From contig OZ237736.1 of assembly GCA_965178125.1 (NCBI GenBank), positions 186,001 to 250,000 of the forward strand: DNA of 64,000 nt, given 5' to 3'. Made by a program: the position numbers and the translations under genes. Source of the DNA: Bilabrum cf. latius (Eukaryota). The notes under the pieces were generated by a model. The model was not told the origin of the DNA, made no database searches, and was given only the letters and a program-made list of their open reading frames with translations. Within the stretch, counting starts at the first letter, position 1, and the number at the start of each line of letters is the position of its first letter. This document shows, one piece after another, positions 8,942 through 63,989 of this stretch.

Positions 8942-9066
8942 GCTACCCGATGCTGTTCGTGACTTTCTTGTTCAAGTTGATCCACAATGACAGTGGTTCT
9001 CGTTCTCATTGCATTCGTTTTGAACAATGTATGGCTGTCTAGCAGGATACCATCCAGTGCATAATA

Positions 9067-28151: not shown

Positions 28152-28181
28152 AATTACTCTCTGCTAGTGTGATGTTGCCCC

Positions 28182-35256: not shown

Positions 35257-38005
35257 TCACAGACCCTGCGCGCCACCACCCTCACCCCCAGCTCCCGACC
35301 CCGCCCCAGCCAGCCCCGACACCCACACTCGCAGCCCCCCGCCATCGTCCCCCGTCGCCGCGAACCTCTCCTCCGCATCCACGTCGGCTGCCACCACCGG
35401 CCGCACGTGACCCGCCAGCCGCGCCAGCACCGCACCGGCCGCCGACCTCGCGTGTGGGTCCACCACCGCCGCCTCCCCCGACTCGGACCCCACCAGGGCG
35501 CAGTCGCAGTGCTGCAGGAGAGCCACGCAGCCGTGGGGCGGGGCTAGCACTGGGTCCCTGGGGATCAGCGAGGGCCGCACCAGCAGGCTAGGGGCCAGCA
35601 GCCTCCCGTTCTCACGGGGATCCGCCCACCTCGCCAGCTGGGGCACACTCGCGGGCTTGCCGGCCACCACAGCGGAGGACAGCAGCCCGCCACCTGCAGC
35701 CGCCGCCGCAGCCGCCCGCGCGTGCAGATCCCCAGGCAGCAGCAGCAGCCTCACCACCCCCGCAGAGTCCAGCGCTGCCAGGCACGGTCGCCTGGCGAGA
35801 CTGTCGTAGGGCCTGTACGCCAGCTCCAGCACGTACCTGCCTCCCGCCAGCGGCACGTCATCCGTGGCAGCAGGCAGCCCATTGCCGCCGGTCCTGCTTC
35901 TCCTCCCCACACCCCCAGAGGCGCCCATGGACCGACCCCCGTGGCTGCCAGACGAGGCACGGGAGGTGGCCCGCGCCCTGGCACCCATAGGAGACACAAC
36001 GGCACCAGCACCAGCACCAGTACCAGCACCAGCACCAGCACCAGCACCGCTCCTGGCCCCGCCCACGTGCCTCCCATGCGCAGACGAGCCCGAGGCAGAC
36101 CCCCGAGAGCTCGACAGCACGGACCCCGCATCCGTCCCGATCGTGGCCGGGTCACCGTCCTCCCCCCACGTGTACTGCCTGCAGCTCTGGCCCGCCGACT
36201 CGAGCTCAAGTGCACCGCTGCTGCCAGTGCCCAGGCTACTCACACCAACACCACCACCACCACCACTTTGATCACCGCCCCCGATGCTGGCAGCGTCCTC
36301 TGCCACGGTCTCGATCGAGCCGCCCGCGCCTCCTCCTGCTCCTCCTGCCTGAGCACCCCCGCTGCCCCCGCCTCTGCTCACACGCGCCAGCACCCTCACG
36401 CCCACCAGGGGCCTCCCCGTCTTGGCCAGCCGCTGCATGGACCGCTCCAGCAGCAGGGCGGCGACCCTGCCCCGGAGAGTGCCCGCGAACACGGCCAGGC
36501 CAGACGGGTCGGCGCACAGGGCCGTCACTGGCGAGCCAAGCGCGACCGTCTGCGTGGTCCTGCCGGTCGCCATGGACACCACTGACACCAGCCCACGAGG
36601 ATACGAATCACCACCACCGGCACCGGCAGGGGGCAGCGCGCCGGCACCAGCACCTATCATAGCCCCCGCCTGCAGACCCGGCCCCACACCCACGCCGCGC
36701 CGCCCGTCCGCCGTGCCCACGCCTTCCGATCCACCGGTGGATGTGCCGGACCCTCCCCCGAACATCGACCGGAATGACCCCAGGAAGCCCGGCCTGCTGC
36801 TGCTGCTGCTGCCACCAGCAGCACCCCCATCCTCATCTCCATCGTCACCCACGCCCCCGTCCCCGCGCCCACCGGCAGGTCCGTAGGCCCCTGCCAGCGA
36901 CTCGCCAGGCCTCGACGACCGCGCCAGCACCACCATGCCGGGCAAGCCAGCCAGGAACAGACCGTGCGTCACGGGACTAGCACACGGAGAACAGCGCGCG
37001 CCACACTCACACGGAGCTCGGGACCAGCCCCGCGTGATCCCGCGGAACCACCACCACCACCACCACCACCACCACCACCACCACCACCACCACCACCACC
37101 ACCACCACCACCACCACCACCACCACCACCACCACCACCACCACCACCACCACCACCACCACCACCACCACCACCACCACCACCACCACCACCACCACCA
37201 CCACCACCACCACCGGTCGTCCACTGCACCCTCCACAGCACCACGGTCTGGTCCGTGCTGCACGTCAGCAGGAACGTCCCGTCCGTGCTCCAGCACAGCC
37301 CCGACACCGCCCTGGCGTGTGCCCTGGCGCTGGGCAAGCCGGCGTCAAGCGGCGAGCGGGCGGCTGACTTGCCGTCCTGATCCGATCCCGGTCCACCGGT
37401 GGATGCCTGCCTCTTCCGCCTGTCTTCCTGCTGCTTGCGCATGACAGCCTGCCACTTGGGCAGCGGGCCCGTACCGCTGTGCCCTGCACCCGACTCAACA
37501 CCGCCTGATGCCGAGCCGGCAGAACTCGACCCGGATGCCGCACTACCATGCCCTGCACTGTGGCTTTCGTCTGCGGCCGAGTCCAGACGGGCTAGCGTCT
37601 CCACCGTCGCGCCTCCCCGGCTGGACTCCCGGAAGATCCCGCAGACGGCCACTTTCCCGTCCTCTGTCCCGTAGGCGAACAGGCTCTGGATACTGGCCTG
37701 GCCATCGGCAGTGATCGATGATCCAGAGGCATTTTCTGGGCCTTCAGCACCTGCACTCTGACCTTCACCACTCCTCGTGACAGCCCGCCTGCCCCAGCTG
37801 TCTCTCCCTGGCAAAGCAGTGGGAGGGGCAAACTTCAGGCAGGTCCCGCCGTGCATCTGCGTGACAGGCACCCAGGTGGGCAGCACCGGCATGGGGGCCG
37901 AGCCCATTCCGATTCTGATTCCGATTCCGGATCCTGTGCCGCCGCCGCCCACGGAGGAGCCTCGAGGCCGGGTGCTGCCCCGATCAGATCCGGCCCCCTG
38001 CTGCC
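35257..38005 (-). pseudogene. 5'-truncated, frameshifted WDR13-like copy 2 (chimera of copy 3 and copy 1)
   Basis: Same truncation and frameshift as copy 1. Diagnostic bases match copy 3 left of ~36470 and copy 1 right of ~36528. Confidence 0.8.
37048..37214. repeat. (CCA)n/(GGT)n microsatellite, 167 nt (about 56 Gly codons)
   Basis: Pure trinucleotide tract, 27 nt longer than in copy 1. Confidence 0.95.
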
Positions 38006-38035
38006 AATTACTCTCTGCTAGTGTGATGTTGCCCC

Positions 38036-38593
38036 GCTGCCCCGTCCATCTACAGGCAGTCCGGCGAGGACTACTAGGAGCGTGTCCTGCCCTCCAACAT
38101 CAACGTGGTGCTCAAGGCCACCGTGGCGCAGTTCGATGCCGTGCAGCTGCTCACCCAGCGCGACCGCGTGTCCCGCCGCATCCGCGAGACGCTCGAGGAG
38201 CGCGCCAAGGAATTCAACCTCATGCTGGACGACGTGTCCATCACCCACCTTGCCTTCGGCAGAGAGTTCACCCGCGCCATCGAGCACAAGCAGGTGGCCC
38301 AGCAGGACGCCGAGCGCTCCAAGTTCGTGGTCATGCAGGCCGAGCAGGAGAAGAAGGCAGCCGTGATCCAGGCAGAGGGCGAGGCCGAGGCAGCGCGCCT
38401 CATCTCCGACTCGCTGGCCAAGCACGGTGACGCGGTCATCGACGTGAAGAGGATCGAGGCATCAAAGGAGATCGCGGCCACGCTGTCCCAGTCCCCCAAC
38501 GTGGTGTACCTGCCCGGCTCAAGCGGTGGTGGCGCGGCCAGTGGCGAGGGCAGCGGGTCTCCGTCTCTGCTGCTGAGCGTGGGACGCAGGTGA
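38036..38593 (+). pseudogene. 5'-truncated prohibitin fragment (copy 3)
   Basis: Same sequence as 28182-28739 at +9854. Confidence 0.85.
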
Positions 38594-39001
38594 GCAGGTG
38601 CTGCATTCCATGGATCATGGCCCTCTTTGGGGTCTTGTCGGATAGATTTGGTTTGGCGTGCACAGGAATCTGTGGTGTGTGACACAGCGACAGGACAAAT
38701 TTTGAGATTCAATGGTTGACTATTACTTCATGTGAATCGACCCAGAGCACAGGAGCCAACTACCCCAGGTGCAACTTCAAGATCCGGATTCCGGATGGAA
38801 TCAGCCTATTCTACAGGGATCACGCCGCACTGCCAACTCTATGAGCCTCAGCCAGCCCTGACGATCACACAGGATCTTTCGAACCTGATACCGGGTGCAA
38901 GTACGAGCGTCCTGCATCTGCCGCATCCACCCGATCCGAATCTGCTGGACCGAATGAACCTCCTGGGATCCTTACGAGTTATCCTGCGATCACGCACCCC
39001 C

Positions 39002-42000
39002 TCACATGGCCCCGCCCATCCTGTCCATGTACTTCTGGGCCTCCTCCATCCTGCCCTCATCCACCAGCAGCCCCACCACCTCCTACATTATGTCCCTGTA
39101 CTCATGGCTCTACTTGCCCTTCTACAGCGACAGGGCCTCCTCTAGCTGGATCAGCACTTCAATAGTACGGGATCGAGGAATAGTTGAGGCCCGGCATGTA
39201 TGCAGCATATTTTTCAATACAGTGACATGGTTGGGATGCTGCTTGCCCAGCGCGGTCTCGAAGATCTGCCTGCATTGCTCATACAGCTCCATGGCCTCGC
39301 TGGACCGGCCCTGGGACTCCAAACACCCAGCCATGTTGTTCAGCGTGGTGGCGTATGAGGGATGCTGCTTGCCCAGCGCGGTCATGCGGATCTGCCTGCA
39401 TTGCTCATACAGCTCCATGGCCTCGCTGTACTGGCCCTGGGACTCCAGACACCCAGCCATGTTGTTCAGCGTGGTGGCGTATGAGGGATGCTGCTTGCCC
39501 AGCGCGGTCTCGAAGATCTGCCTACATTGCTCCAGCAGCCCCATGGCCTCGCTGGACCGGCCCTAGGGCCTGAGACACCCAGCCATGTTGCCTAGCGTGG
39601 TGGCATACTCGGGATGCTGCTTGCCCAGCGCGGTCTCGCGGATCTGCCTGCATTGCTCATACAGCTCCATGGCCTCGCTGTACCGGCCCTAGGATCTGAG
39701 ACATCCAGCCATGTTGCCCAGCGTGCTGGCATATGAGGGATGCTGCTTGCCCAGCCCGGTCTCCTGGATCTGCCTGCATTGCTCATACAGCTCCATGGCC
39801 TCGCTGTACTGGCCCTGGGACTCCAGACACGCAGCCATGTTGTTCAGCGTTCTGGCGTACTCGGGATGCTGCTTGCCCAGCGCGGTCTCGCGGATCCGCC
39901 TGCATTGCTCCAGCAGCTCCATGGCCTCGCTGTACTGGCCCTGGGACTCCAGACACCCAGCCATGTTGTTCAGCGTGGTGGCATACTCGGGATGCTGCTT
40001 GCCCAGCGCGGTCTCCTGGATCTGCCTGCATTGCTCATACAGCTCCATGGCCTTGCTGGACTGGCCCTAGGACCTGAGACACTGAGCCATGTTGTTCAGC
40101 GTGGTGGCGTATGAGGGATGCTGCTTGCCTAGCGCGGTCTCCTCGATCTGCCTGCATTGCTCATACAACTCCATGGCCTCGCTGTACTGGCCCTGGGAGT
40201 ACAAACATGCAGCCATGTTGCCCAGCGTGCTGGCATATGAGGGATGCTGCTTGCCCAGCGCGGTCTCCTTCATCTGCCTGCATTGCTCATACAGCTCCAT
40301 GGCCTCACTGTACTGGCCCTGGGACTCCAGACACGCAGCCATGTTGTTCAGCGTGGTGGCGTACTCGGGATGCTGCTTGCCTAGCGCGGTCTCGCGGATC
40401 TGCCTGCATTGCTCATACAGCTCCATGGCATCGCTGTACTGGCCCTGGGAGTATAAACATGCAGCCATGTTGTTCAGCGTGGTGGCGTACTCGGGATGCT
40501 GCTTGCCCAGCGCGGTCTCGCGGATCTGCCTGCATTGCTCATACAGCTCCATGGCCTCGCTGTACTGGCCCTGGGAGTACAAACATGCAGCCATATTGTT
40601 CAGCGTGCTGGCATATGAGGGATGCTGGTTGCCCAGCGCGGTCTCGAAGATCTGCCTGCATTGCTCATACAACTCCATGGCCTCGCTGTACTGGCCCTGG
40701 GACTCTAGACACTGAGCCATGTTGTTCAGCGTGGTGGCGTACTCGGGATGCTGCTTGCCTAGCGCGGTCTCGCGGATCTGCCTGGATTGCTCATACAGCT
40801 CCATGGCCTCGCTGGACCGGCCCTGGGATCTGAGACATTCAGCCGTGTTGTTCAGCGTGCTGGCGTACTCGGGATGCTGCTTGCCCAGCGCGGTCTCGCG
40901 GATCTGCCTGGATTGCTCATACAGCTCCATGGCCTCGCTGTACTGGCCCTGGGATCTGAGACACGCAGCCATATTATGCAGCGTGGTGGCGTACTCGGGA
41001 TGCTGCTTGCCCAGCGCGGTCTCGCGGATCTGCCTGGATTGCTCATACAGCTCCATGGCCTCGCTGTACTGACCTTGGGAAATGAAATTGCTAGCCAATT
41101 TGAATAAAGCCAACGCAAGCACTGTTGAAGCTTTGCTCGATTCGCCGTTGGCAGCGTCTATTGCTTTGCTACCGCATTCAAGTGATAAGCAAGCAATGCC
41201 TACATATCCAAGCCCGGCAGATCGTGCAGATACCCCGCGAAGCGCTTCCTGAACGCCACTCACATCTGCACCTCCGACCCGCTGCATGTGCGCTAGCTCT
41301 GTAACAACTGCAATCGCGCCCTCAGATGGCTTGCTGCGGTGGACGCCACCGGCAGCAGCAAGATCCGTGCCTACACATGAGTCAGACGAGATCACCAACC
41401 GGCCCATATCCTGTCCAGCACGAGTGGTCCAGTACAAGTGTGAAGTTCCTGAATCTACCACACCAGCTCGAGCAAAATACTACGCAACGTCTGCAAAGCC
41501 TCGAAACATACTCTTGACTCGAGCGCTACAGTGACATGTCTCCAATGCATCCCGGTCGGAAGGGAGCTACGGCCTACAGCTGCATCCCACAGCTAGTATC
41601 GCCTGCGATGATTCCAGGTCACCCTTCATCTGATTCGCAAGCAGACGCACATGCCTCAGCCCCAGCCCAAACGAATGCATCACACGCTTCAGTACACCAC
41701 GATGCACCTCGAAATCATCCAGTACATCCACATCCACAGTGCGACACACCTCCAGCGCCAGCTCATCACGGTACCGATCCACAACCTCAGCACGAGCCTT
41801 CGCATACAGCTTCCCGATGCACTCTCGAGCTCGTGATCTACCCCCTGCATCCCCTGCCATGATCAGGTCAGGACTCAGGCCCTCGAATGCATCCTCGCCC
41901 TCCAGCTCACGCAGCCGATGCGCGGCCTCAGGAGGCAGCAGGCACGTCATGGCCACGTTGCCGGAGTAGTACCACCGGGGACATGATACGATCGCCACCA

Positions 42001-44437
42001 TGACCACCTGCCCGCTGCCGTCCTTGGCACTGGCACTGACACAGCCCGTATCCAAATGGTGCTGCATGTCACTGGGTTGGAAGCGGATGCTAGACAAGCC
42101 ATCGGTGTAGTCGTCGCTCCAACGCTGCAGGGCACCTGACAGGTGAGAGAGCGACAACACTTTCGATGTTCTATCTTCGTCCCGGATGATGCATAATGAG
42201 TCCAGCTGACCATGATACGTAGCAGGATCAATACTGCGATCAGCAGAAGCCGCGCAAGTCGTATCGATCGCCCACACCCGCGGTTTGGCCTCATCCGACT
42301 CCATCCAGTCCATCCACACCACATCTGGAATCAGCAGACGGTGCGTGTCCAGCACCACCCGCTGCCCGCTGGCAAGCTGGTGCACCTCCACGTCGAATGG
42401 AAGATGCATGTTGACCTTCACACCGTGCACCTGCTCGCAAACGTGCTCCACATCAGGCAGTGGCTTCCTGTAGTCCAGATTCACACCCGTCCTCACGATC
42501 GCATGATACACAGCCCGGGCCAGCCCCTGTTCCTGTGGTGTGAGTCTCTTCTTCTCGTCTTCCGTCAGTCGCATGCGGGCGGGATCCAGTGCCGCCCTGA
42601 GACGCTGCACGCTGTCGTCATGCATGCCTCGATCCTGCAGCACATCCAGGAATGTGCGTGCAGGCGCAGGGCCAGAGCCAGCCGCAGCGGCGTCTGAGGT
42701 AACATCTAAAGGTGTAAATGCAACGTATTTGTGGTTCACCAGCGTTCGAACATTGCGATCCACATACTTCGCGATCCCGAAGTGCCGGGCCAGTGGCTTC
42801 ACCACGTCCTCCAGCTGCTCATTGTCCCGATGCATGCTGGTTCTGCCGTCCGATGAGCCCACGCGCATAGTCGTCTCACCGACCGAGGCATCGAATGCAG
42901 CCTCAAATGCTCCAGCATCCGGCTCCCGCCCATCGTGCTGCTCTTGATACGATACCCGGAATGCAGCATCATTCCATGCCATGCAACCCCGCACATCCAC
43001 GCGAGCAAACGCCTGCACGCGAATCACATACCAGCCACCACCTGCCACATCCACTCGCACATCCACGCACTCTAGCAGAGGCGTCGACACGTGCACGCTG
43101 TCCATCGCATGCACCCAACGACTCGCCGCCGCCTCCCGCTTCGCCGCCTTGGCCGCCATGCGCGTGCTGCCGTAGAAGCCCAGGTGGTCGAATGCGAACT
43201 TCAGAAACAGACCCAGGCCCTCATGTACTGCCTTGATGCCCCCGGCCATGCCCCCCGCATCGATGAACTTGAGACCCAGGTCCTCCTCGATCTGGGCCTT
43301 GTCCCCATCGGTGAAGCCCACGGGGTCCAGCGACCTGTCCCCGTGCCTCCATTTCATCTCCACCTCGGGGAAGCCCTCTAAAGCTTTGCGCACGTCCTGC
43401 CTGAAGAGCACACCGATGCGGTCTAGCTTTCGCTTGCGGTCCTGCTGCTCGTGCGGCCACAGGGCCACGGTGCGCTTGGCGGCCTCGAAGGCGGGCTGTC
43501 TGCCTCGGGGGCTGGGAGCCTCGTCGTCATCGCCATTTTCGTCCTTTCCTACGGCGAGTTCTCCAGATGCCGAGCCAGCATCGGCCGTCCCGCTTATTGT
43601 GTTGATCCTTTCTGCAGCCCCCGCCGATGCCCCTGAGTACCGGGATGCAGGTGGCACGTGATCGTCTGCACCTGCACCAGATGCAGCAGGAGGATCACGG
43701 GGAGAAGCAGGGGAGCCCGAGGCCGCCCCACTGCTTCCATGTCCGGTTGGGTTAACATTGCCTGCTGCAGCCTCGATGCTTGAGCTAATAGCGATTGTAT
43801 CGTCTGTAGAATCAGCGGATCCTGCATGGCTTGCATCCCGTGCTGCAGTGGGTTGCACTCGACTCACATCACTCGTGAAGCCAAACGATGGATGTGCAGG
43901 TGGCGGCGAGACCTGCGTGGCCTCGCCGACACCTGCTGCTCCATCGGCCGCGCTTTGCCCACTTCCATCATCGTGATCTCGAGACAGCTCCCCTCGAGAT
44001 GCAGTTGTCCCTCTGCCACCACCATGTCGAGCCGGCCCGTAGACACGAAGAGGGTCACCTGGGCCCGGCCTGCCGGTTGCTCTTCCATACGGATTGGTGC
44101 CACCCCTGCTGGTCGATATTTCTGGGACTGTCCCCGCTTGCAGTGATGGCCGTCGTGGCACCGAGGGGCTTGGTCCCACGCTTGAGGCTGCAGAGCGAGG
44201 GGTCGATCCGCGGGACACAGTCGCTCCTTGGTCCCTGCTAGCCACCCCAGCTGGCCCAAGCTCATCAGATGCACCTTCGATGGCAGATCCAGGGCCAAGT
44301 GCCACACCTGAGGCATCCTTTTTTTGTTGCGGGTATCCTTGGATTCGTGTAGCTGGTTCACTCCGAGACGATGCTTCAGCGGAGCTCGATGAGCCTTCCG
44401 TCTAGGCATGGTCCAAACCTTGGCTGGAGGACGCCAT
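39002..44437 (-). CDS. Clu-domain / TPR-repeat protein, paralogue C (duplicate of B)
   Basis: Near-identical to 29148..34583 at +9854. Confidence 0.8.
39214..41094 (-). repeat. 126-nt coding tandem repeat x15 (TPR array)
   Basis: Duplicate of 29360-31240. Confidence 0.95.
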
Positions 44438-45110
44438 TGTGCTTTCTTATATTATTATACCCTATCACACCTATGTTTACTCTATCAAGCCCACTATCAG
44501 CTATAGAGGGTCCAAATTTGCTTACTTGCTCTCAGCTTAGTTCCGATCTTTGCCTGACAGCTAGACACGAAGCTATTGAGCCACCCAGGGTGATGCTTGG
44601 TTCGTTCACTTTGTCAACGTGGGATCTGTAGAGATGATCTGGCCAAACCAAGCTTCAGGGGCAGAAAAACCAGGCTGCGGCTAGTCCTTTCTGCGGTTCT
44701 CAGCAAGTTGAGAGTGATCTGGTTAGATCTGTGCATCTGACTGGGCACAAGGGATCGAGGGCACGCTCAATATATGCTTCATCGATGGTACGAGTACTCG
44801 AGAATGTAGCAATGCTCACTTTCTGGGGCTAGGCGGTATGAAACGGAATTGTCCAGTCGATCGGATGGATTCATGAAATTTGAGTTGCAACCACCGGCGC
44901 AAGAAAATGTTGGTTACAACCGGTCGATCGTGTGGGAGTCTAGAGGGGGAACCTGCAGCCGTCTGCGCGTATTTGATAAGACATACAATCCCGGCCTCAT
45001 GCGACAAGCTCAAATCATGCACCATGACCCCTTTGATCTCTCCCCCACACCGCACCTGGGACCCATGACATGCACAAGATCGCCATTGGCCTCTACTGCC
45101 GCCATCCCAC

Positions 45111-48100
45111 TCACAGACCCTGCGCGCCACCACCCTCACCCCCAGCTCCCGACCCCGCCCCAGCCAGCCCCGACACCCACACTCGCAGCCCCCCGCCATC
45201 GTCCCCCGTCGCCGCGAACCTCTCCTCCGCATCCACGTCGGCTGCCACCACCGGCCGCACGTGACCCGCCAGCCGCGCCAGCACCGCACCGGCCGCCGAC
45301 CTCGCGTGTGGGTCCACCACCGCCGCCTCCCCCGACTCGGACCCCACCAGGGCGCAGTCGCAGTGCTGCAGGAGAGCCACGCAGCCGTGGGGCGGGGCTA
45401 GCACTGGGTCCCTGGGGATCAGCGAGGGCCGCACCAGCAGGCTAGGGGCCAGCAGCCTCCCGTTCTCACGGGGATCCGCCCACCTCGCCAGCTGGGGCAC
45501 ACTCGCGGGCTTGCCGGCCACCACAGCGGAGGACAGCAGCCCGCCACCTGCAGCCGCCGCCGCAGCCGCCCGCGCGTGCAGATCCCCAGGCAGCAGCAGC
45601 AGCCTCACCACCCCCGCAGAGTCCAGCGCTGCCAGGCACGGTCGCCTGGCGAGACTGTCGTAGGGCCTGTACGCCAGCTCCAGCACGTACCTGCCTCCCG
45701 CCAGCGGCACGTCATCCGTGGCAGCAGGCAGCCCATTGCCGCCGGTCCTGCTTCTCCTCCCCACACCCCCAGAGGCGCCCATGGACCGACCCCCGTGGCT
45801 GCCAGACGAGGCACGGGAGGTGGCCCGCGCCCTGGCACCCATAGGAGACACAACGGCACCAGCACCAGCACCAGTACCAGCACCAGTACCAGCACCAGCA
45901 CCGCTCCTGGCCCCGCCCACGTGCCTCCCATGCGCAGACGAGCCCGAGGCAGACCCCCGAGAGCTCGACAGCACGGACCCCGCATCCGTCCCGATCGTGG
46001 CCGGGTCACCGTCCTCCCCCCACGTGTACTGCCTGCAGCTCTGGCCCGCCGACTCGAGCTCAAGTGCACCGCTGCTGCCAGTGCCCAGGCTACTCACACC
46101 AACACCACCACCACCACCACTTTGATCACCGCCCCCGATGCTGGCAGCGTCCTCTGCCACGGTCTCGATCGAGCCGCCCGCGCCTCCTCCTGCTCCTCCT
46201 GCCTGAGCACCCCCGCTGCCCCCGCCTCTGCTCACACGCGCCAGCACCCTCACGCCCACCAGGGGCCTCCCCGTCTTGGCCAGCCGCTGCATGGACCGCT
46301 CCAGCAGCAGGGCGGCGACCCTGCCCCGGAGAGTGCCCGCGAACACGGCCAGGCCAGACGGGTCGGCGCACAGGGCCGTCACCGGGGAGCCCAGCGCGAC
46401 CGTCTGCGTGGTCCTGCCGGTCGCCATGGACACCACGGACACCAGCCCGCGAGGATACGAATCACCACTCTCGGCACCGGCAGGGGGCAGCGCACCGGCA
46501 CCAGCACCTGCCATAGCTCCCGCCTGCAGACCCGGCCCCGCACCCACGCCGCGCCGCCCGTCCGCCGTGGCCACCCCTTCCGATCCACCGGTGGATGTGC
46601 CGGACCCTCCCCCGAACATCGACCGGAAGGACCCCAGGAAGCCCTGCCTGCTGCTGCTGCCACCAGCACCCCCATCCTCATCTCCATCGTCACCCACGCC
46701 CCCGTCCCCGCGCCCACCGGCAGGTCCATAGGCCCCTGCCAGCGACTCGCCCGGCCTCGACGACCGCGCCAGCACCACCATGCCAGGCAAGCCAGCCAGG
46801 AACAGACCGTGCGTCACGGGACTGGCACACGGAATCACGCGCGCCACACTCACACGGAGCTCGGGACCAGCGCCGCGCGATCCCGCGGAACCACCACCAC
46901 CACCACCACCGGTCGTCCACTGCACCCTCCACAGCACCACGGTCTAGTCCGTGCTGCACGTCAGCAGGAACGTCCCGTCCGTGCTCCAGCACAGCCCCGA
47001 CACCGCCCTGGCGTGTGCCCTGGCGCTGGGCAAGCCGGCGTCAAGCAGCGAGCGGGCGGCTGACTTGCCGTCCTGATCCGATCCCGGTCCACCGGTGGAT
47101 GCCTGCCTCTTCCGCCTGTCCTCCTGCTGCTTGCGCATGACAGCCTGCCACTTGGGCAGCGGGCCCGCACCGCCGTGCCCTGCACCCGATTCAACACCGC
47201 CCGATGCCGAGCCGGCAGAACTCGACCTAGATGCCGCACTGCCATGCCCTGCACCTTGGCTTTCATCTGCCGCCGAGTCCAGACGGGCCAGCGTCTCCAC
47301 CGTCGCGCCTCCCCGGCTGGACTCCCGGAAGATCCCGCAGACGGCCACTTTCCCGTCCTCTGTCCCGTAGGCGAACAGGCTCTGGATACTGGCCTGGCCA
47401 TCGGCAGTGGTCGATGATCCAGAGGCATTGCCTGGGCCTTCAGCACCTGCACTCTGACCTTCACCACTCCTCGTGACAGCCCGCCTGCCCCAGCTGTCTC
47501 TCCCTGGCAAAGCAGTGGGAGGGGCGAACTTCAGGCAGGTCACGCCGTGCATCTGCGGGACAGGCACCCACGTGGGCAGCACCGGCATGGGAGCCGCGCC
47601 CATCCCGATTCCGATTCCGGATCCTGTGCCGCCGCCGCCCACGGAGGAGCCTCGAGGCCGAGTGCTGCCCCCATCAGATCCGGTCCCCTGCTGCCCCTTG
47701 TTCCCTGTTCCTTTGCTGGCTACCCCCCCCATCGCTGAGGGTGGCAGCGGGAGGCCCCTCGAGACCATCCTGACCGCCTCCACAGCGGCTTTCTGCCGCT
47801 GCTTCTCCTCCTCTTCGGCCTCTGCGCGCTCCGCCTCCCGCAGCCTTCGCTCGGCTGCCACGGCGGCCTGTTGTTCCCTGGAACCCTGCCCCAGTTGCCC
47901 GCAGCCCGTCCAGTTCGCCAGCCCCCTAGGCACCCCCAGCCGCAGGCTCCGCCCCACGAGCCTGAACCCCTTCGACTTGCGGTGCTTGTTCCCTGGCTGC
48001 CCGTCTGTCCCACCCGCAGCGTCATCGGAATCTGATTCCGAGTCCATGTCGTCCTCGCTGCCAGCTGCCTCCTCGTCCTCCAGCCACCGCTGCAGCTTGG

Positions 48101-48773: not shown

Positions 48774-49197
48774 CACGGCTGTGCTCGAAGGTGACGGCGG
48801 TAGAGCAGTTGTTCCTTGTAACAAAGATGCACAGTGTTGATGAGGACCTGGGACGCTTCTTTGGTGCTCTAGTGGAATGAAGCTCAAGCACGCGGAGTTG
48901 AAAAGGAGAACAAATATTTACCACGGCGAGCCGAAGGCAGGCCCAACACTGTGGGCCAACAGACCAGAGCTCCTAACTAGCCCCTCGTAAGCTTCAGTGC
49001 TCTGTCAAACAGAAGGTTAAGCAACCTAGGACATCATTCTACACCTGAGTGACCTCAAAACTTAGCCACGGTTCGAACGGTGCTGGAGCGGGGCACGTGC
49101 GTGCAGTTGCAGTGATCTATACCTATTTCCGTACGCAACAAAGCTGCTGCGTCGACGATTCGCATCAAGCCCCATTTTGCTGCCCAAACGAACGAGA

Positions 49198-52029
49198 ATG
49201 AGAGTGCTAGCATCTGCAATAGTGGTTGGCATATGTTTGTCTCCCTTTTCGAGTGCGCAGACAAACACATCGGCCTGTGTAAAGTATCCTTCCCTGGCTT
49301 GGTGCGATCCAAGCAAGTCATTTGAGGACCGCGCCAGTGCGGTCATCGAGCTCATGACACTCGAAGAGAAGATCAACTAGACTGCAACATACACGCCGAA
49401 GGGTGTGGGTCAGGCGATTCCCCGGCTGCACTGGCCAGAGTTCAGCTATCACAGCGAGGGGCTCCACGGCTTGCGGAATTCGTTCGATACGCTCGGCCTT
49501 AACGCTACGCTCCTGCCGCAAGCGACGGGCATGGCAGCGACCGGAAACATTGATCTGATCGATGCCATGGGGTCGATGATGGCCCTCGAGGGCCGCGCGC
49601 TGAACAACGTCGCGCAGCAAAAAGGCGTGTGGTTTCCTCGAGGCGCAGCCCTCTTCATTTGGTCCCCGACCATGAATTTAGGGAGGCAGCAGTGGGGACG
49701 ATTTGGAGAGAGCATTTCCGAGGACCCTTATCTCCTCGGACTGTACAGCGCCCGCATGGTGAAGGCCCTTCAGGGCAACGGGTCGCACTACATCGCACTC
49801 GCCGCCACCTGCAAGCACTTCGCCGCGTATTCGCTAGAAGGGATCAAGATCGACGGGCACGACTACACTCGTCACAACTTTGACGCCATCGTGAGCGAGC
49901 AGGACCTCCAGGGCTCCTACCTGCCGATGATGAGGGCCTGCATCACACAGGCCAAGCCGGCGCAGGTCATGTGCTCGTACCCCGCGCTCAACGGGGTGCC
50001 CAACTGCGCCCACGGTGATCTGCTCGAGGGAACAATCCGGGGGAAGTGGGGCTATTCCGGTTTCGTTGTGTCGGACCAGGGTGCCATTTCCAACATCGGG
50101 ACGCCGGAGCCGCAGGGACACGGGTACACGAACGGGCTGGTTAATGGATCTGCCGTGGCCATCAACGCGGGCTGCGACCAGAACGATGGAGACATTTACG
50201 CGCATAACTTGGGCGATGCCGTGACCCAGGGCCTCGTGACCCAAGATCGGATCAACCTGGCCTTGAAGCGCACCCTGACGCAGCGCTTCGCAACGGGCAT
50301 CAACGACCCACCCGCCCTTGTTCCCTGGATCAAGATCCCACCGAGCGTGCTGGAGCAGCCATCCCACCAGGCACTCGCACTCAGGGCGGCGAGGGAGAGC
50401 CCAGCCTTGCTCGTGAACAAGAACGGCCAGCTGCCATGGAGCCTATCAGCCTCCTCCACGCAAGGTGCCCTGCGGAACCGGGGCGCCGCGCAGCAGATCC
50501 GCCGCATCGCAGTGATCGGCCCGTTGGCCAACAGCTCCCAGACAATGATGGGGGCGAAGGACGACTACCACCCGTCCTTCACGGTGACCTACCTGCAGGG
50601 ACTTATGGCGGTCAGCAAGGCGCTCCTTGACGGTGAGGGCGGGGGCAAGGAAGACCGGTGCGGACAGATTTTTGGCTCCGGGTCTGTACCCTACGGCGGC
50701 GAGGTGGACGGTATGCCGGAGGAGGTGCGGGCGCTAATGGGGGCAGTGCACCGAACCGTGAATCACTGCACTGCGGTGCCCGGTCTCTCCACCCTTCCGG
50801 TGCTGACCCCTGCTGATGCCTCTGCCGCCGTGTCTTCCCTCACGGTGAGGCAACTTGAGGGCACTGAGGGCCCCGAGGGCCGGATCCATTCGTACATCGT
50901 CCGCGGTATGGACGGCTAGGACAGTCTTCAGCTCGATTACGCGATCGGATGCACGAACACCAAGTGCCAGAATGACAAGGGCTTCGCAGCGGCATAGCAG
51001 GCGGCCACGGGCGCCGATGCCAGCCTCTTGTTCCTTGGGATCGACATTCTGATCGAAAAGGAGGGGCAGGACAGGCCGGGTGTTGACCTGCCCGGCATGC
51101 AGCAGGACCTCGCCAAGGCAGTGGCTGGATCCAGCAAGGGGCCGCTGGTTGCAGTGCTTGGTAACGGCGGGCCCGTGTCTGCGCCGTGGTTGAATGAGCA
51201 CGCCGATGCCGTCATCGATGCATTTGACGGCGGGCAGAGCGGGGGGCAGGCACTGGCAGAGATCCTGTTCGGGGAAGTGAACCCAAGCGGGATGATGCCG
51301 TACACCGCCGTGCCGCCTGCCTTCGTGAGTGCGGCGCCGCTGAACAACATGTCGATGCGGGCGGGACCAGGGCGGGGATACAGGTTCTACTAGCCCGACT
51401 CCATTGGGCCCGTGGTGTTCGCCTTTGGCCAGGGACTGTCCTACACCACCTTTGAGACCAAGTGGAGCGTGTCGCCGCCAGCCAACGCGAGCACGCTCCA
51501 CATGGCCGCACTTGAGGCCACCGTGACCGTCACCAACACGGGCAAGGTGGCAGGCGGTAAGGTCGTGCAGGCCTACATGAAGCTTGACGCTCCCGAAGAC
51601 GGCATCAGCGCAGGTGCCTACGCCCCTAACCCAGTGCTGTACGGGTACCAGAAGGTCTTCTTGAACCCTGGCGAGAGCAAGCAGCTGCATTTCTCCACGG
51701 CGACCGCTCTGTCTGCATCCAGCCGTGCGCTAGAGCCCACGGATGCTGCCATGGAAGCCATGGATGCATCGGCGCGCGATGCAGGCCTTGTCAGTTAGGA
51801 GGACCTGTACCTTCTGGCCGAAGCCAGCCTCGGCTGGTGCGCGGCGTGCGACGTGGATTCGGAGGGGCAGCGGTGGCTGCGGCCCGGCCGGTACGTGCTG
51901 TCGATCGGCGCCGGCAGTGCGGATGAGGCGAGGAGGATAGCGAGAGGCGAGCTGGATGCGGCTGAGGTGCACGCGGCGCATGCCGTGGTGCGGGCGACAG
52001 GGCCCAGGGTCCTTGTGCCAGCGGTTTGA
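49198..52029 (+). CDS. Secreted GH3 beta-xylosidase/beta-glucosidase-like enzyme
   Basis: Signal peptide, MTLEEKIN[TAG], SEGLHG, WSPTMN..WGRFGESISEDPYL, CKHFAAY, VMCSY..NGVPNC, nucleophile motif VVSDQGA, EKEGQDR, GRGYRFY, FAFGQGLSYTTF and VTVTNTG. Five TAGs; ends at TGA 52027. Confidence 0.9.
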
Positions 52030-56296: not shown

Positions 56297-59200
56297 TCAA
56301 GCGTCTGCCTGCTCGCGAGATTTATCCGGAGATGCCTCGCTCCCTGGGACCTGGCTTTTGGCCGGTTCGTCCTCGTGGGCAGCTCGAGCAAAGCCAGGAG
56401 CTGTGCCTGGCTTGCTCGAGCCACGCACCGGCTTGCCATGAGGCCACATGGGAGATTGTCCCTACAGATCTCCCCTGCCGATGAACCTGTTACCCTCGAT
56501 AGTAGAACGATCTCCCGACTCGGTGCTGCACTTGCCTTTGCTGGCAGTCTCGGGTCTTGATGACGGGCCAGCAGCTTCTCGGCGATGCTCCGCAGCCTCC
56601 TCCTCAGTGTCCACCAGTCCGGTTCGTCCACAAAGCCACTCCATCTTCGGACCAAAGACTCTTTCAAACACAGCGAATGCAGCTTTGAACCCGCCAAGGA
56701 TACCCACTGTGAGACCCAAGATGGACGAGGCCACTTGAGCCAAGGTGTAGGCTGGCGTGATGCTGGTCGTAGCAAACACTCCCGCTCGCGACACCCGGAT
56801 GCTGAGCCTCGTCACCGTGCTGGCAGGATCGATGGCATCGACAGATCGAGTCGACGTCGCCCCGCTGCGCAGGTCTTGTACTCGGAAGCCCTCCACGCTC
56901 CTGGAGCTTCCAGTCCTCGTGTCGTCCAGCACATGACCGACCAACGCCATCTGCTCGGATCTAGCATCCAGCATCTCTTGCAGGTGCATGGTGGCGTTCG
57001 AGGTGAGTGGATCAGCTGATGGAGACACTGCAGTGCCGCTCACACTGGACCAGCGGCCTCCCGCGTCTTGCGTTGCCAGGCGCCAGCTGATCGCCTGCAC
57101 GGCCCAGTGAGTGTCGAGGTCAAGCGAGGTGACTGCACTTAGGCCGCAGTCGTCACACGTGGCTCGAAGCCAGCACAGGGGTCGATCGAGCTGCTGGTTA
57201 CCAATGGACAGCTCCTGCACGGTGGCTGTAGCTGCCAGTTGCAGCATCGAATGCGCCGGTGCGTCTCCTGCCAGTGGTGCGGAAGACAACGATGCGCGAC
57301 CAGAGCTCACGGTAAGCAGGTACGACTCATTGCAGGCTGCCAGGGAGGTCGGAGACAGCACGGCATCCAGCGCCATGTTGCTCATTGCAGATGCGGCTCT
57401 GCCGGCACCGGAGGCCCCTGCCGTGGCCACCTGCAGCCCATCCGTGGTGATGGAGTTGCGATAGGCGAAATCGAGCACTAGGGTAGTGGACGATGTCAGT
57501 GCCACCAGCACGGCCATGACGGTGAACCACCCACCCATTGCCGTGGCGATCCTCCTGACAGCGGCATACTCGACGGGCTTGTGCTCCTGCGCCATGCTGT
57601 CGATCATTCGGAGTCCCGAGTGCATCGTTGGTCGTGCAGACGGCACCAGCAGCAGAAGCAGTAGCACGCAGAGCACGCATGTAGACATGATCCATGCGAT
57701 AATAACAATGCCAGATGCATCATCATTGCTGGTATCACCATCGCTTGCCCCATCTTCAGGCTCACCATTCGAGTCGCCTTGTCCTGGCTCTTGCAGACGC
57801 CGTGCAGCCACGCTATCCCCCCTCAGTCCTGCCATCACTTTGGGGTCAACCACCACCTCTGGATCCATCTGCAGCCGTCTACTGGACCCACTGGTGCTGT
57901 AGCTGCCAGTCGAAGCACTCGCGAAGGCACCCTTGGCAGCTCCAGGCAGGGGGATATCTGCCATGGATTCCTGGAGCACAGCCACAGCAGGCACAGGCTC
58001 GGGGACACCGGGCAGGCACATCGTGCCAGGCTCGCTGCATTCTGTCGGTAAATCAACGCACTCGTTGTTGCTTGAATCCAGAAGGCTACCCCCTGGGCAT
58101 CCAGAGCACGATGCCGAGCCACTATCGCTGCTCAGGCCTGCACCGCACTTGATGCAGCTGGACGTGAGGGCAGCACCAGCATATGGCATGTAGGTGGCTG
58201 GCGGACACTTCGAGCATGCAAATGATCCGTACATGGAGCTGGATACAGTGCCTGGCTCACAAGCCACACATGACTGTACGTTACCGCCGGGTGAAGATGT
58301 ACCTGGCAGGCATGGCTCGCAGGTCAAACCCGCCATCCCGACAGGGCACGACGTAACCACAGCAATGCAGTCGGAGGCGCTAGATGTGCCAGTCCCAACT
58401 GTTGTGGTCCCTTCAGGGCACTAGACGCAGTCTGACGAAGCAGTTGCCTGTCGTACCTCGCTGTAGGTGCCTTTGGGACACTCTTGGGCTCTCACACCAT
58501 CCTCGCAGTAGGCCCCTGCAGGGCACTCCACGCACAGAATCCTCGAAGCAAGTGAGTTTCCAAGCACGTCAACTTTGGATCGAAAGGTGCCAGCGTTGCA
58601 TGTGATCCCTACAGTATCAGACACATTCACGGATGAAAGCGCAAAGAGGTTGGCGAATGCCTCGGCGTGCGACGTACTGATTGGGTTGTTTCTGAAGTCT
58701 ATCGCCTCCATTGCATCATTCGCAGTGAAGGACAGCTGGGGCAGGTACTCGATCCCGTTGTCACTCAAATCTATCGTAATCGCGCTGATTAGGGGCGAGA
58801 GCGCGCCATTTAGTAGAGTAAATGACCGGTCGCCAGAGGACCCCTCGACCCTCAGATTGGTCAGTCCAGTTAGGCCAGCAAATGTTGTCTCTGTCCATAC
58901 AGACCGGCGCAGATCCAGACCTTGCAGATCCAGAGTACGAAGACTGCCTGCAAATGCGCAGTCTCGAAATCCATTCATGGCCAGGTCCTGGGTTTTGCCA
59001 AATACACGCTGTGCGCCAGGCGCCTGGATGGACAGGGAAGCGAGGGAATCGAGACCGTCGAAGAATCCACACGTGCCGTTCTCAACAGTAAAATCAGCTC
59101 CAAGAGTCAGAGCTATATCAGTCAGATCTTCAAGGTGTACTAGTAGCCCAGTTGGCCCGGCTTCCAGCATTGGGGTGTCAAGTTCAAGACGGCGAGGACT

Positions 59201-61546
59201 GCCGTGAGCGCCCGAAAAGGCGTCCGTATGCAAATGCCGCAGTCCAGGTGCCTCGATGCTCAGTTGCAAGGATGACACTGAGCCTTCGAAAAGCCTCTCT
59301 ACTGCTTCCTGCATGCTCGATGGCAGCGAGATGGACGTCAGGCCCGTCAGCCCTCGCAGCGCGCCTGCATCCAGACTCGACACCTGCGTCATGGACAGGT
59401 CCAGCGACTACAGGCCGGATGGGCCCGATCCATCCTCGGCCGATGTGAACGCGTCTGGCTCGATGGTGCTGATGGTCGACGGCAGCGAGATGGACATCAG
59501 GCCCGTCAGCCCTCGCAGCGCGCCTGCATCCAGACTCGACACCTGCGTCATGGACAGGTCCAGCGACTACAGGCCGGATGGGCCCGATCCATCCTCGGCC
59601 GATGTGAACGCGTCTGGCTCGATGGTGCTGATGGTCGACGGCAGCGAGATGGACGTCAGGCCCGTCAGCCCTCGCAGCACGCCTGCATCCAGACTCGACA
59701 CCTGCGTCATGGACAGGTCCAGCGACTGCAGGCCGGATGGGCCCGATCCATCCTCGGCCGATGTGAACGCGTCTGGCTCGATGGTGCTGATGGTCGACGG
59801 CAGCGAGATGGACGTCAGGCCCGTCAGCCCTCGCAGCACGCCTGCATCCAGACTCGACACCTGCGTCATGGACAGGTCCAGCGACTGCAGGCTGGATGGG
59901 CCCGATCCATCCTCGGCCGATGTGAACGCGTCTGGCTCGATGGTGCTGATGGTCGACGGCAGCGAGATGGACGTCAGGCCCGTCAGCCCTCGCAGCGCGC
60001 CTGCATCCAGACTCGACACCTGCGTCATGGACAGGTCCAGCGACTACAGGCCGGATGGGCCCGATCCATCCTCGGCCGATGTGAACGCGTCTGGCTCGAT
60101 GGTACTGAGACCCTACGGCAGCGTGATGGACGTCAGGCCCGTCAGCCCGCGCAGCACGCCTGCATCCAGACTCGACACCTGCGTCATGGACAGGTCCAGC
60201 GACTGCAGGCCGGATGGGCCCGATCCATCCTCGGCCGATGTGAACGCGTCTGGCTCGATGGCAGCAGTTTTATCGGGTAGTTGTACCTGTATCAGCGTTC
60301 CATTGTCAGTTCCCAAGCTGTGCCGTGGGATGACGGTCAGATTGGAACACCTTGACAGGTCTATCGCCAGCAGTCGTGGTGCTCCAAGAGCAAAGTTCTC
60401 TGGCAGCTCGTTGAGATCGGCTGGCAGCACAAGACTCTCCAATGACGTCCAACCAGCGAGAATTGGCTTAATCCGGCCTATTGGCCATTGGGATAGGATT
60501 GAGGTGGCAGATAGATCTAGCAGTGTTGCAGATCTGTCAGCAGATACGGCAGTGAAGTTCACGACCGGAGGAATGCATTCGATGGGTACTGACCATGCCT
60601 GCACGCTCGATGGCGGGCTGGACATAGAATCGGAGTCGGCCCCGAAGCAGTGCATCTAGTGTGTGCCTGCCTCGATCCCACACGTGTGGTACCCACCTGC
60701 AGACACGGCGGACCATGCCTTCACACTTGATGGCGGGGTGGTCCGGGAGTTCTAGTTGCTGGACCCGAAGCAGTGCATCTTGTCAGTACCTGCCTCGATC
60801 CCACACGTGTGATACTCCCCCGCAGAGACAGCAGACCATGCCTGCACACTCGTTGGTGGCGTGGCCCTGGAATCAGAGTTGGACCCGAAGCAGTGCATCT
60901 TGCCAGTGCCAGCCTCGATGCCACACGTGTGAGCTACACCAACAGCCACAGCGGACCATGCCTGTACACTCGATGGCGGGCTGGACATAGAATTCGAGTT
61001 GGACCCGAAGCAGTGCATCTTCCCAGTACCTGCCTCGATCCCGCACGTGTGTAACATACCAGCAGACACGGCGGACCATGCCTGCACGCTCGATGGCGGG
61101 GTGGCCCTGGAATCAGAGTTGGACCCGAAGCAGTGCATCTTGCCAGTACCAGCCTCGATGCCGCAGGCGTGACTCCAGCCCGCAGACACGGCTGACCATG
61201 CCTGCACGCTCGACGGTGCCTGTGGGGTGATCTGGGAATTCACCTCTAGCCCGAAGCAGTGCATCTAGCGAGTGCCTGCCTCAATCCCACACGTGTAGCC
61301 ATCCCCCACAGAGACAGCGGACCATGCCTGCACATTCGATGGTAAGTTAGACTGATACATTTTGTCAAAACAGTGCATTTTGCGAGTGCCTGCCTCAATT
61401 CCGCAGGTGTGGGAGATACCAGCCATTTCGAGCGACATGCGATTGCTGTACTCTAAGCACCAGTTTTCGCCCTTTGATCGCCCAAGCATCAAAATGGTCG
61501 CAACAACAATAAGTGATCTTATTAGTTTCGGCATTGCGACAGGCAT
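56297..61546 (-). CDS. Large cell-surface membrane protein: signal peptide, 7 RCC1/CR4-like repeats, LRRs, Cys-rich (TNFR/GCC2-GCC3-like) repeats, ~3 TM helices (1749 aa)
   Basis: Six listed ORFs share one frame, joined by nine TAGs, and end at TGA 56297. Repeats WSAVSAGxxHTCGIEAGTGKMHCFG, LQSLDLSMTQVSSLDAGxLRGLTGLTSISLP and CxxCPxGT; hydrophobic segments GIVIIAWI..LLLLLV, WFTVMAVLVAL and VASSILGLTVGILGGF. Confidence 0.8.
59310..60262 (-). repeat. 159-nt coding tandem repeat x6 (53-aa double-LRR unit)
   Basis: 159-nt periodicity of GACAGGTCCAGCGACT. Confidence 0.95.
60580..61420 (-). repeat. ~120-nt coding repeat x7 (RCC1/CR4-like blades)
   Basis: The MHCF motif recurs seven times at ~40-aa spacing. 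Confidence 0.9.
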
Positions 61547-61778
61547 CCGAAACTACCGATATGCCAAGAGTTTAGATGTAAATTCACATTTGGGTGCAAA
61601 AAAATCGGTACGGAACCGAACCTTCATTGACATTCCTTTCCACATCCAGCTTTGTTAGAAAATTAAATTAAAATTGTCTTCTTGTCCGCGTTTCTAGCGG
61701 TCCCTCTCCTTGTTGCCTGAAGGAGAATGACCGCCCGGTGACTGCCCGTAGATCTAATCCGAAACTCAATCGTTACAA

Positions 61779-63989
61779 TTGCGATGCAATCGTCACACAT
61801 CATGGAAGCGATCGCCGATCATGAAGGCTCAGGGTTGGGGAGATCAGGCAACTGGTTTCCTTCTGTCACGACTGAAGGTCTCGGTCCGGATCAGGGACCC
61901 AGCTACTGGCAAGACATCCAGGCCAATCCAGAAGGAGGCTGGGACCCCGCAAGGAGAAGTACTCTCACCGGCGCTCTTCCTCGTCGTCATGGGGGTCCTC
62001 CTCGAGGCCATTGCGAGAGAGCGCTCAGATTTGGGACACTCTCATGTACTGCAACCGTCACCAGGATCTAGAGGTACTCCTTGGGGACAGTGTGGCTATG
62101 CAGATGACTATGTAGCGGCAGCAACGACATGGACGGAGGCCTGTCAGGTGGTCGCGGTCGTCACTGAGCTGTTCGAACTGGCCGGACTTGAGCTTGGGTT
62201 TCGACCAGTGAGTCAATCAGGGCTCGCGAAGAAGGCTGCCATGATGCCGTTTGGACTTGCAGCCGACTCCTTTCCCCGTGGGTGGGACGACGATATCGCG
62301 TGTACAGCCACGGAAGTGAACCCATCATGGGTAGAACAGACATGGACCGTTCCCCGCGCGAAGTCGTATGTGTATCTAGGGTTGCTGATATCGACGACTA
62401 GAATCCATGCCACAGCAGCAGAGCTTGGCCCCGGCTACGAAGAGAGGGACGTGATAGCCATTGACATGGTCCCCCACGTTCGGCGGAGGGTGGCAATGGT
62501 GATGCAACAAGCATCCATCATAACCCGCGCTGCAGTTGACTGTGATTGGTCGGTTAGTCTATACTCCCAGATTCTCTATTCTGGAGCGCTCACAAGCGCG
62601 CTCTAAGGCATTGGTGTTGCTGGATGCGCCACTGGCTGGGAACACTTCCGAGGTCTGGAACAGCGGATCTCTGTGAACTACGGCGTGATCATGAATGCAG
62701 CTGTGATGAGTGTAGTGGACCGTTTCCTGGCACGCATGAGGTGGATGCTGGCCACTGGAATGGCTGACCGTATGCCATTTGCCGTCGAAGGACGTCGCTT
62801 GCCGAAAGTGGCGTTGGATTCTGAGGTATGGCTTGCGAGTGCTGCTGAAAGGACCGCACGGGACCTCTTTGAGCTCATGCGAGCCCCAGATAGGAGGGGT
62901 CTACCAGTGGTATCTCACTACATCCGGACTGCATACATGTGCCAGTAGATGTCGCAGCAGGGACCTCTTAGTGCTGCGGCGTCTCTCAGGCTTCACCTTC
63001 ATGGCAATGGAGTATCTGTTGACAACGGAGTGACTTGGCTGGGGGAGAAGGAGCTGAATCGGGCGGTGCGCCGTTGGCACTCGTCGAAGTCTGCTTCTAG
63101 CATCAGGTCTTTCAGGAACTTGAGCCCTGGATGCCACTCCGGTTAAGTCCTGGCGAGCGCAATCAGGCAGCAGAATGCAGAACAGACAGTATCACTGGAC
63201 CAGTACCATGGTCAGGTTGACGGGGTGTTCGGCCCTGGTTCACTGCCTACCACTGCAGCACTGCAACCGCGTGGCTCCGACGGGTGATTGATCCTTCGTG
63301 TCCGTGCAGGTATTTACCCTCGTTCCTGTTCCCCTACTCCAGAACTGACTGACAAGGTGGCTGTGGAGATGACTCGCCGAGAGTCATCGCTGCAGTCACG
63401 TGGTCTTCAGGCAGAGTGGGTCTCCGGTGACTGGACCAGTCGAACTTCAGAGGAGAAGGGCAAGATAAGGAAGGCATGGGCGGACCATGGCCTACGTCTT
63501 GAACCTCACCCACAACCTCTGGAGCAGGACAGGCGTGGAGTCGCCGCTGCTGAGCGAACCATTCCCACGATGCGCCGAGCAATTGCCCGCTCTAGCGCCT
63601 CTGTTGGATCGGTACGGCTTGCGACACGGGTGGTTGATGAGCTGAGTGTAAAGATCAGAACGTTTCCGTCCTGGACTGCCTGCAGGTGGTGGACTGGGGC
63701 CTCGGTGCGAGGCTGGACTGCGAGCTCATCGGATGATCTGTATGCTGCAATGCGAGCTTAGGATCGAAGGGGACATCGGGTGGCTCGCCCTTGAGGGCTC
63801 ATGCACACTCTTGAGAGGATCTGGGCGCGTGAGATGGCGACTTCGCTTCGTTGTGTCTTGCGTGAAAGGGAGTACCTGCGTCGCACATGGACGTCCCGCT
63901 GGTGGCGGATGGCATGTGTTGACGGTCCGGCTGTCCTTACGAGGATGGCTCGGGCTCACTCTCCTTCCCTCTGGTCCTTTGGTGGATGA
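61779..63989 (+). mobile_element. Degenerate, 5'-truncated non-LTR retrotransposon reverse transcriptase
   Basis: GTPQGEVLSPALF, GYADDYV, AGLEL..K and YVYLGL motifs. One frame is kept for ~2.2 kb but is interrupted by TAA 62604, TAG 62946, TAA 63144, TGA 63285 and TAG 63759. The element may extend beyond the window. Confidence 0.8.

Follow-up and report, generated by a model that had tools for sequence, protein, structure and literature searches.

Known reassignments of UAG to glutamine and comparison with the window

Reassignments of nuclear stop codons are few, and those that affect UAG without UAA are fewer still. UAG alone is read as glutamine (Gln) in Iotanema spirale (a fornicate), Protocruzia tuzeti (a ciliate), and two phyllopharyngean ciliate lineages (NCBI table 15 type), and UAA and UAG together (UAR; NCBI table 6) in many ciliates, Ulvophyceae, Hexamita, Streblomastix, and Amoeboaphelidium; in the available portions of the two sources (PMC5304391 and PMC11687900), the lineages with either type of change to Gln comprise ciliates, ulvophytes, hexamitins, oxymonads, Amoeboaphelidium, and Iotanema. 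TAG is also translated as Gln in crAss-like phages (code 15), as described in the available part of PMC9523058. We herein analyzed a 64,000-nucleotide (nt) stretch of contig OZ237736.1 (positions 186,001 to 250,000; referred to as the window, in which positions are counted from 1), with a focus on a minus-strand gene for a leucine-rich repeat (LRR) protein, the tandem repeat units of which contain either TAG or CAG at the same site. Reading frames, internal repeats, paralogues, and homologues indicated that this organism uses TAG as a sense codon, for which Gln is by far the best assignment.

Similarly to the UAG-only lineages, TAG occurred in frame in intact genes, where it apparently encoded Gln, and TAA was not a sense codon (0 of 16,438 codons). 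On the other hand, the window differed from them in its GC content (55-70%), its long and mostly unbroken genes, and its closest named prohibitin homologue, that of Cafeteria; furthermore, TAA was never a gene end (0/13). In comparison with table 6, the meaning of TAG and the restriction of observed stops to TGA were the same, whereas no in-frame TAA was found where approximately 32 were expected. The codon and meaning were also those of code 15 of crAss-like phages, but the window is eukaryotic chromosomal DNA with probable introns. We consider it highly probable that the window derives from the nuclear genome of a GC-rich eukaryote, in which UAG encodes Gln and UGA ends genes, and that the TAG/CAG difference within the repeat array of the LRR gene was spread by unit duplication and/or conversion.

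Two described lineages were also considered as matches and rejected: Amoeboaphelidium, the genomes of which have a GC content of approximately 40% (available part of PMC10608142) against 55-70% here, and Amoebophrya sp. ex Karlodinium veneficum. In the latter, in-frame TAG is likewise probably Gln, via a cognate suppressor tRNA; however, its genome is AT-rich, and all three stop codons are read contextually, with in-frame TAA and TGA (as far as covered by the available part of PMC12005148), while TGA was strictly terminal (13/13) and TAA was absent from frame 0 in our sample.

TAG as a sense codon

No open reading frame (ORF) of at least 1000 amino acids was found in the window with the standard code; eight were found when TAG was read as sense, none when TAA was, and one when TGA was. 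The plus strand contained 153 TAA, 396 TAG, and 712 TGA triplets. Codons were then counted by frame over 13 long ORFs (16,438 codons; 11 ORFs from the window and two from L002, a metagenome contig described below), which is a small sample, delimited by TAA and TGA. TAG occurred 108 times in frame 0 (approximately 0.66% of codons), 141 times in frame 1, and 89 times in frame 2. The respective numbers for TGA were 13 (all terminal), 314, and 321, and those for TAA were 0, 37, and 62. TGA is a stop codon in use. If this genome or those of its relatives are annotated under the standard code, most of the long genes will be fragmented.

The standard code would be kept if U-to-C editing converted UAG into CAG in mRNA. 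Such editing would have to act specifically at the above proportion of codons (108/16,438) in nuclear transcripts, and to our knowledge there is no precedent for U-to-C editing of nuclear transcripts on this scale; we regard this explanation as barely conceivable.

Paralogous TPR/CLU genes

The best internal control for the meaning of TAG is a pair of paralogous TPR/CLU genes on the minus strand, in which both the repeats and the paralogy carry weight. Gene A (20243..25378; 1711 codons) contains 17 TAG codons and 11 TPR units of 42 amino acids, and gene B (29148..34592; 1814 codons) contains nine TAG codons and 15 TPR units; both end at TGA. A third gene, C (39002..44446), is a copy of B with a difference of 1 nt. 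At position 8 of the TPR unit, the 26 units of genes A and B had CAG (16 units), TAG (nine), or CAA (one), with no other residue. TAG was also present at position 6, a variable site, among Lys, Arg, Glu, Ile, and Tyr. When genes A and B were aligned, TAG was found in 22 codon pairs, with CAG as the partner in 11, TAC in three, GAT and GAG in two each, and GCA, AAG, TTG, and TGG in one each. The dN/dS value (ratio of non-synonymous to synonymous substitution rates) between genes A and B was 0.47 (1636 codons), and 0.40 for the 836-codon non-repeat domain, indicating that these TAG-bearing genes are under purifying selection. Repeat arrays and recent paralogues offer a database-free route to a variant code, which is valid only at positions proven invariant; the TPR array has such a position, while the LRR array described below does not.

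Genes B and C lie in a tandem duplication of approximately 9.85 kb (27220..37067 and 37074..46910; 99.6% identity) that covers one TPR/CLU gene and a portion of a WD40 gene, and an older third copy of this block, approximately 90% identical, was found around 19283..24265. A minus-strand region, 25379..28245, and its copies contained very long triplet runs that differed between the duplicated copies; these runs are translated into approximately 50 Gly in the frame of the WD40 gene and approximately 50 Trp in another frame.

The LRR gene and its tandem array

The LRR gene (56297..61654, minus strand; protein P0001) consists of 1785 codons, 10 of which are TAG, and is open only when TAG is sense; with the standard code, the minus strand of this region gave ORF pieces of 652, 328, 158, 180, and 170 amino acids. 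The frame terminates at TGA (56297-56299), and the probable start is Met37 or Met41, ahead of a hydrophobic, signal-like stretch. The layout of P0001 is this stretch (after Met41), RCC1-like repeats, the LRR region, a Cys-rich module, and a C-terminal domain. Pfam matches were found for RCC1_2, LRR_5, LRR_8, and Ephrin_rec_like, among which LRR_5 (PF13306) matched in five stretches with 105.4 bits (E = 2.5e-30; cut-off, 27.7) and LRR_8 with E = 1.2e-38. In our reading, the gene encodes a receptor-like surface protein. The LRR_5 match is shared with BspA-type LRR surface proteins, and the array described here is made up of 53-residue LRR_5-like repeats; P0001 differs from these proteins by the addition of the N-terminal RCC1-like repeats (60591..61342, minus strand; approximately seven repeats of approximately 120 nt or 40 amino acids each), the ephrin receptor-like Cys-rich module, and a multi-span C-terminal domain with no counterpart in Pfam. 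TAG codons outside the array include 60752-60754 in the RCC1-like region, 58421-58423 (Q1078), and 56462-56464 (Q1731), all on the minus strand.

The C-terminal domain (56297..57700; approximately 470 residues) is conserved, contains several hydrophobic spans, and had no Pfam match; a database search with the C-terminal standard-code piece of the gene returned just three relatives (P0124-P0126, environmental; 39-44% identity), and P0127 (see below) was the only other relative found. A reverse transcriptase (RVT_1) fragment was located directly upstream of the LRR gene (61758..62606, plus strand).

The array (59307..60260, minus strand) consists of six tandem LRR_5-like units of 53 codons, 97% alike; Tandem Repeats Finder reported 6.0 copies of a 159-nt unit at 59313..60261 (97% matches; score, 1772). 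The plus-strand motif CAGCGACTNCAG, corresponding to CTG-NAG-TCG-CTG on the coding minus strand, occurred exactly six times at a spacing of 159 nt. In protein order, the codon at this site (unit codon 19) was TAG in units 2 (60044-60046; Q537), 5 (59567-59569; Q696), and 6 (59408-59410; Q749), with CTA on the plus strand, and CAG in units 1 (60203-60205), 3 (59885-59887), and 4 (59726-59728), with CTG on the plus strand, giving the pattern Q q Q Q q q (where q is TAG). The units, coordinates, and codon states reported in the first-pass annotation were, thus, confirmed in the assembled sequence.

That annotation had also concluded that the codon alternates as a synonymous site does and that the alternation by itself assigns TAG to Gln, without any database. 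An alignment of the six units in codon register, which it had proposed as a check, reproduced the three TAG and three CAG codons; however, it did not bear out these conclusions. Variation was found at 12 of the 53 codon columns, eight of which were non-synonymous, and codon 35 matched the pattern of codon 19 perfectly: the TAG units had GCG (Ala) and the CAG units had GTG (Val). Since a non-synonymous site alternates identically across these units, the alternation is no proof of synonymy. There are two unit subtypes, TAG with Ala and CAG with Val, and because of this linkage, the 3:3 split does not represent three independent events; as little as a single mutation, multiplied through duplication or conversion of units, may be its origin. 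The site is the second residue of an L-x-x-L-x-L stretch, which we take to be a variable position of the LRR consensus, and the equivalent site was occupied by many different residues in the diverged units of a homologue, P0127 (see below). Elsewhere in the gene, TAG also stands opposite TCG and AAG/AAA (see below), which likewise counts against an assignment by alternation. The array agrees with TAG as Gln, but does not assign it, and alone is no proof. The assignment itself was upheld by other evidence: the TPR repeats, the paralogue pairs, a conserved column of a GH3 glycosidase, and a distant relative of the LRR gene.

We propose that the BspA-type LRR region recently grew by tandem duplication of the 53-codon unit, and that a single C/T change at the Gln codon (CAG to TAG or the reverse) would have arisen in one unit, at or near the time of the Ala/Val change. 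With both codons read as Gln, this C/T change would have been silent, and a later unit duplication or gene conversion may have spread it, leaving three TAG and three CAG units. Under the reading of UAG as Gln, the LRR array is genuine and neatly illustrates a silent difference between CAG and TAG that duplication of units has spread.

Sequencing runs and the integrity of the LRR gene

Errors of assembly or consensus in a collapsed or mis-polished repeat could also produce TAG in an array whose units were all CAG in reality. An identity of 97% over 954 nt is difficult for short reads, and the read depth in bins of the array was many times that of the flanks. We compared 56100-59470, which includes one LRR unit, with four runs of three studies (all Logan contigs, one run possibly being the source of the assembly, in which case it is not independent); the stretch was found in eight runs from four studies. 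In each of the four runs (three studies), TAG at 58421-58423 was covered by difference-free contigs 938-993 letters long, TAG at 56462-56464 was inside contigs without differences in runs X1 and X4, and the tandem joint (59470 to 59313) was present in 4/4 runs. Therefore, TAG codons outside the array were confirmed in independent runs. Furthermore, the linkage between TAG and GCG and between CAG and GTG, 48 nt apart in all six units, has the look of real unit subtypes rather than of random polishing errors, and the other long ORFs contained 98 more in-frame TAG codons. An error in the array is, in our estimation, very unlikely.

Runs X6 and X7 carried a diverged allele or strain, which departed from the window sequence at 67 positions of 56100-56972. 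This allele has a pair of indels (+1 and -1) at 56479 and 56486, 7 nt apart, that restores the frame. Among the differences listed for the four runs, 26 codons were changed, 13 of them synonymously.

A decaying pseudogene, in which TAG codons are nonsense mutations copied among the units, was another possibility, and the first-pass annotation had named an untranslated pseudogene as grounds for abandoning its reading. Pseudogenes are common in repeat-rich families of surface proteins, the variable unit columns are predominantly non-synonymous (8/12), and none of the eight runs with the stretch is on record as RNA. On the other hand, the 1785 codons contained no TAA, TGA, or frameshift, whereas the other two frames had 50 and 42 TAA/TGA, and none of the tests applied pointed to an untranslated pseudogene. 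Half of the codons changed by the listed differences (13/26) were synonymous, the indel pair of the diverged allele restores the frame, and the homologue on L002 retains the architecture. Moreover, pseudogene status would have to be assumed for all other long genes of the window as well. Decay of the LRR gene is, thus, extremely unlikely, and its frame, judging by these features, is a coding frame that has not decayed.

Homologues and the identity of the residue

The frame of a GH3 glycosidase (49021..52029, plus strand), with seven TAG codons, two of which precede the likely start, spans the family at full length only when TAG is read. Among the 37 homologues aligned, 32 had a residue opposite TAG at 49378-49380, in the N-terminal LEEKINQ motif, and this residue was Gln in 30. 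The share of Gln in homologue cells was 37/180 for the seven TAG columns, 262/1201 for CAG, 34/105 for CAA, and 624/25748 for other codons. A prohibitin (Band_7) exon (19055..19762, plus strand) has TAG at 19241-19243 and 19319-19321; none of the strongly conserved Gln columns of prohibitin uses TAG, and this codon may be avoided at critical sites. In a BLOSUM62 likelihood test on the seven usable TAG columns of GH3 and prohibitin, Gln was ranked first, and the same test on CAG, GAG, AAG, and TAC returned the right residue with wide margins. Homology within 64 kb supports Gln, although thinly, and the main weight rests with the repeats and paralogues.

One of the above relatives of the C-terminal part of P0001 lies on two metagenome contigs, L001 and L002 (99.96% alike). 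When TAG was read as sense, the frame on L002 had 2403 codons with 25 TAG, and a neighboring frame of 1476 codons required nine TAG to be open; the longest ORF with the standard code was 539 amino acids. The homologue (P0127) showed 46% identity with P0001 over 839 amino acids, had the same domain order (RCC1-like, LRR_5, Cys-rich, and membrane), and scored 209.5 bits against LRR_5. At the DNA level, no similarity below an E value of 1e-10 was detected between the window and L002, indicating that L002 comes from a distant relative and that the TAG trait is older than one species. These frames show that TAG is a sense codon in the distant relative too. Two of the database fragments, P0125 and P0126, terminate exactly at positions where relatives have Gln, and appear to be genes cut by standard-code translation.

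Several observations weigh against Gln or weaken the case for it. The codon column of the LRR array is fully linked to the Ala/Val column and may reflect a single event. A fourth TAG in the array (60113-60115, minus strand; Q514), at codon 49 of the first unit, faces TCG (Ser) in the other five units, and TAG codons in two of the RCC1-like repeats (61265-61267 and 60656-60658) face AAG/AAA in the other five; accordingly, TAG lines up with TCG and AAG/AAA within the LRR gene. None of the seven TAG pairs between P0001 and P0127 had Gln as a partner (Ser in four, and Glu, Lys, and Asp), which we attribute to the variability of TAG sites at 46% identity. In prohibitin, TAG at 19319-19321 is in an Asp column (34/40 homologues), and the other column is variable (Asn 20, Thr 8, and Gln 7). 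In the likelihood test, the lead of Gln over Thr was just 0.87 log units (seven columns), so that homology alone is thin. CAG, the commonest Gln codon, is a single transition away from TAG, and some excess of this pairing is predicted by mutation alone. Scans for tRNA genes in the window and in contigs L001 and L002 detected none.

These observations bear on an alternative in which TAG, although sense, has an ambiguous meaning or specifies a residue other than Gln (Ser, Lys, Glu, Tyr, or Leu). This alternative is favored by the five TCG and five AAG/AAA codons facing TAG in the LRR gene, Ser in 4/7 pairs with P0127, TAC in three paralogue pairs, and the conserved Asp column in prohibitin, and UAG is known to encode Ser, Leu, or Glu in other eukaryotes (available part of PMC11687900). 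However, the invariant TPR position contained only CAG, CAA, and TAG in 26 units, the GH3 column was Gln in 30/32, Gln was first in the likelihood test, and the sites pairing TAG with residues other than Gln are variable sites. We give very little credence to a residue other than Gln.

Status of TAA

If TAA were treated in the same manner as TAG, approximately 32 in-frame TAA codons would be expected in the 13 long ORFs (from CAA/CAG = 157/533 and 108 TAG), and none was observed in 16,438 codons. TAA was also not found as a gene end in these ORFs (0/13; TGA, 13/13). Seven long ORFs were bounded upstream by TAA, and these boundaries probably lie in untranslated leaders. The code, thus, looks to be TAG-only (table 15 type), with no new meaning for TAA.

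Alternatively, both TAA and TAG may be Gln (table 6), TAA being merely rare in a GC-rich genome. The exclusive use of TGA as a gene end is as expected if TGA is the sole stop, TAA was the rarest of the three triplets on the plus strand (153 vs 396 TAG and 712 TGA), and UAA and UAG mostly change together (available part of PMC5304391). Against this, TAA was absent from frame 0, whereas the off-frames contained 37 and 62, and reading TAA as sense only added 5' extensions of 6-163 codons to the ORFs, the longest of which overlapped a GH32 gene on the opposite strand. We regard a table 6 code as unlikely. By analogy with other lineages in which UAG was reassigned to Gln, a tRNA-Gln with the anticodon CUA would be expected in the organism, and eRF1 would no longer release at UAG; the window itself contains no eRF1 gene. 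An anticodon CUA should not decode UAA (available part of PMC11687900), which would explain a change limited to TAG.

Within the 13 long ORFs of the window and L002, TAA behaved as if unused, rather than clearly as stop or sense. The only long ORF with a TAA end was in a tandem repeat at 1698..3032, with 'AQMHCAHVRLE...' units in one frame; several frames of this repeat are open on either strand, and the ORF is probably not a gene.

Affinity of the organism and other features of the window

The window has eukaryotic content (prohibitin, a cyclin domain, WD40, ankyrin repeats, and the reverse transcriptase fragment) and probable introns: a sulfatase domain extends over two frames, the prohibitin exon has no start, and GTAAGC is present at a frame boundary of L002. 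The best named match of prohibitin was that of the stramenopile Cafeteria (73%), and other named matches, at 64-66% in pairwise comparisons, were from red and green algae, plants, Cantina, Aplanochytrium, and Leptophrys; no ciliate or fornicate was among the best named matches. Pairwise identities of this single gene are a weak pointer to a heterotrophic stramenopile affinity. The named matches of GH3 (choanoflagellates, Mataza, and diplonemids; 42-50% identity) were uninformative for the taxon.

The code change is of a known kind, and the lineage is possibly unreported: in a literature coverage that is incomplete, no report of UAG as Gln was found for stramenopiles or for other GC-rich organisms outside the ciliates. 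We tentatively suggest, as a possibility short of an expectation, that the window represents an unreported GC-rich, non-ciliate lineage with a prohibitin near that of Cafeteria and at least one distant relative in environmental metagenomes, in which UAG only is Gln, UAA is unused in frame, and UGA alone ends genes. If true, UAG would have parted from UAA independently once more, for the first time in that part of the tree. Cases of UAG without UAA bear on the co-evolution of release-factor specificity and suppressor tRNA, and a GC-rich lineage with UAG as Gln would test whether code changes need AT-biased genomes.

Carbohydrate-active enzymes with a secreted appearance were clustered at 3..8971 and 49021..52029: GH123, a sulfatase (apparently split by an intron), GH16-like, GH32 with PAN, and GH3. 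This cluster suggests an organism that may feed on polysaccharides. A 1282-codon frame at 8749..12597 (plus strand) contained, in its C-terminal part, approximately 22 tandem units of 11 residues (HGNGASSQEQE).

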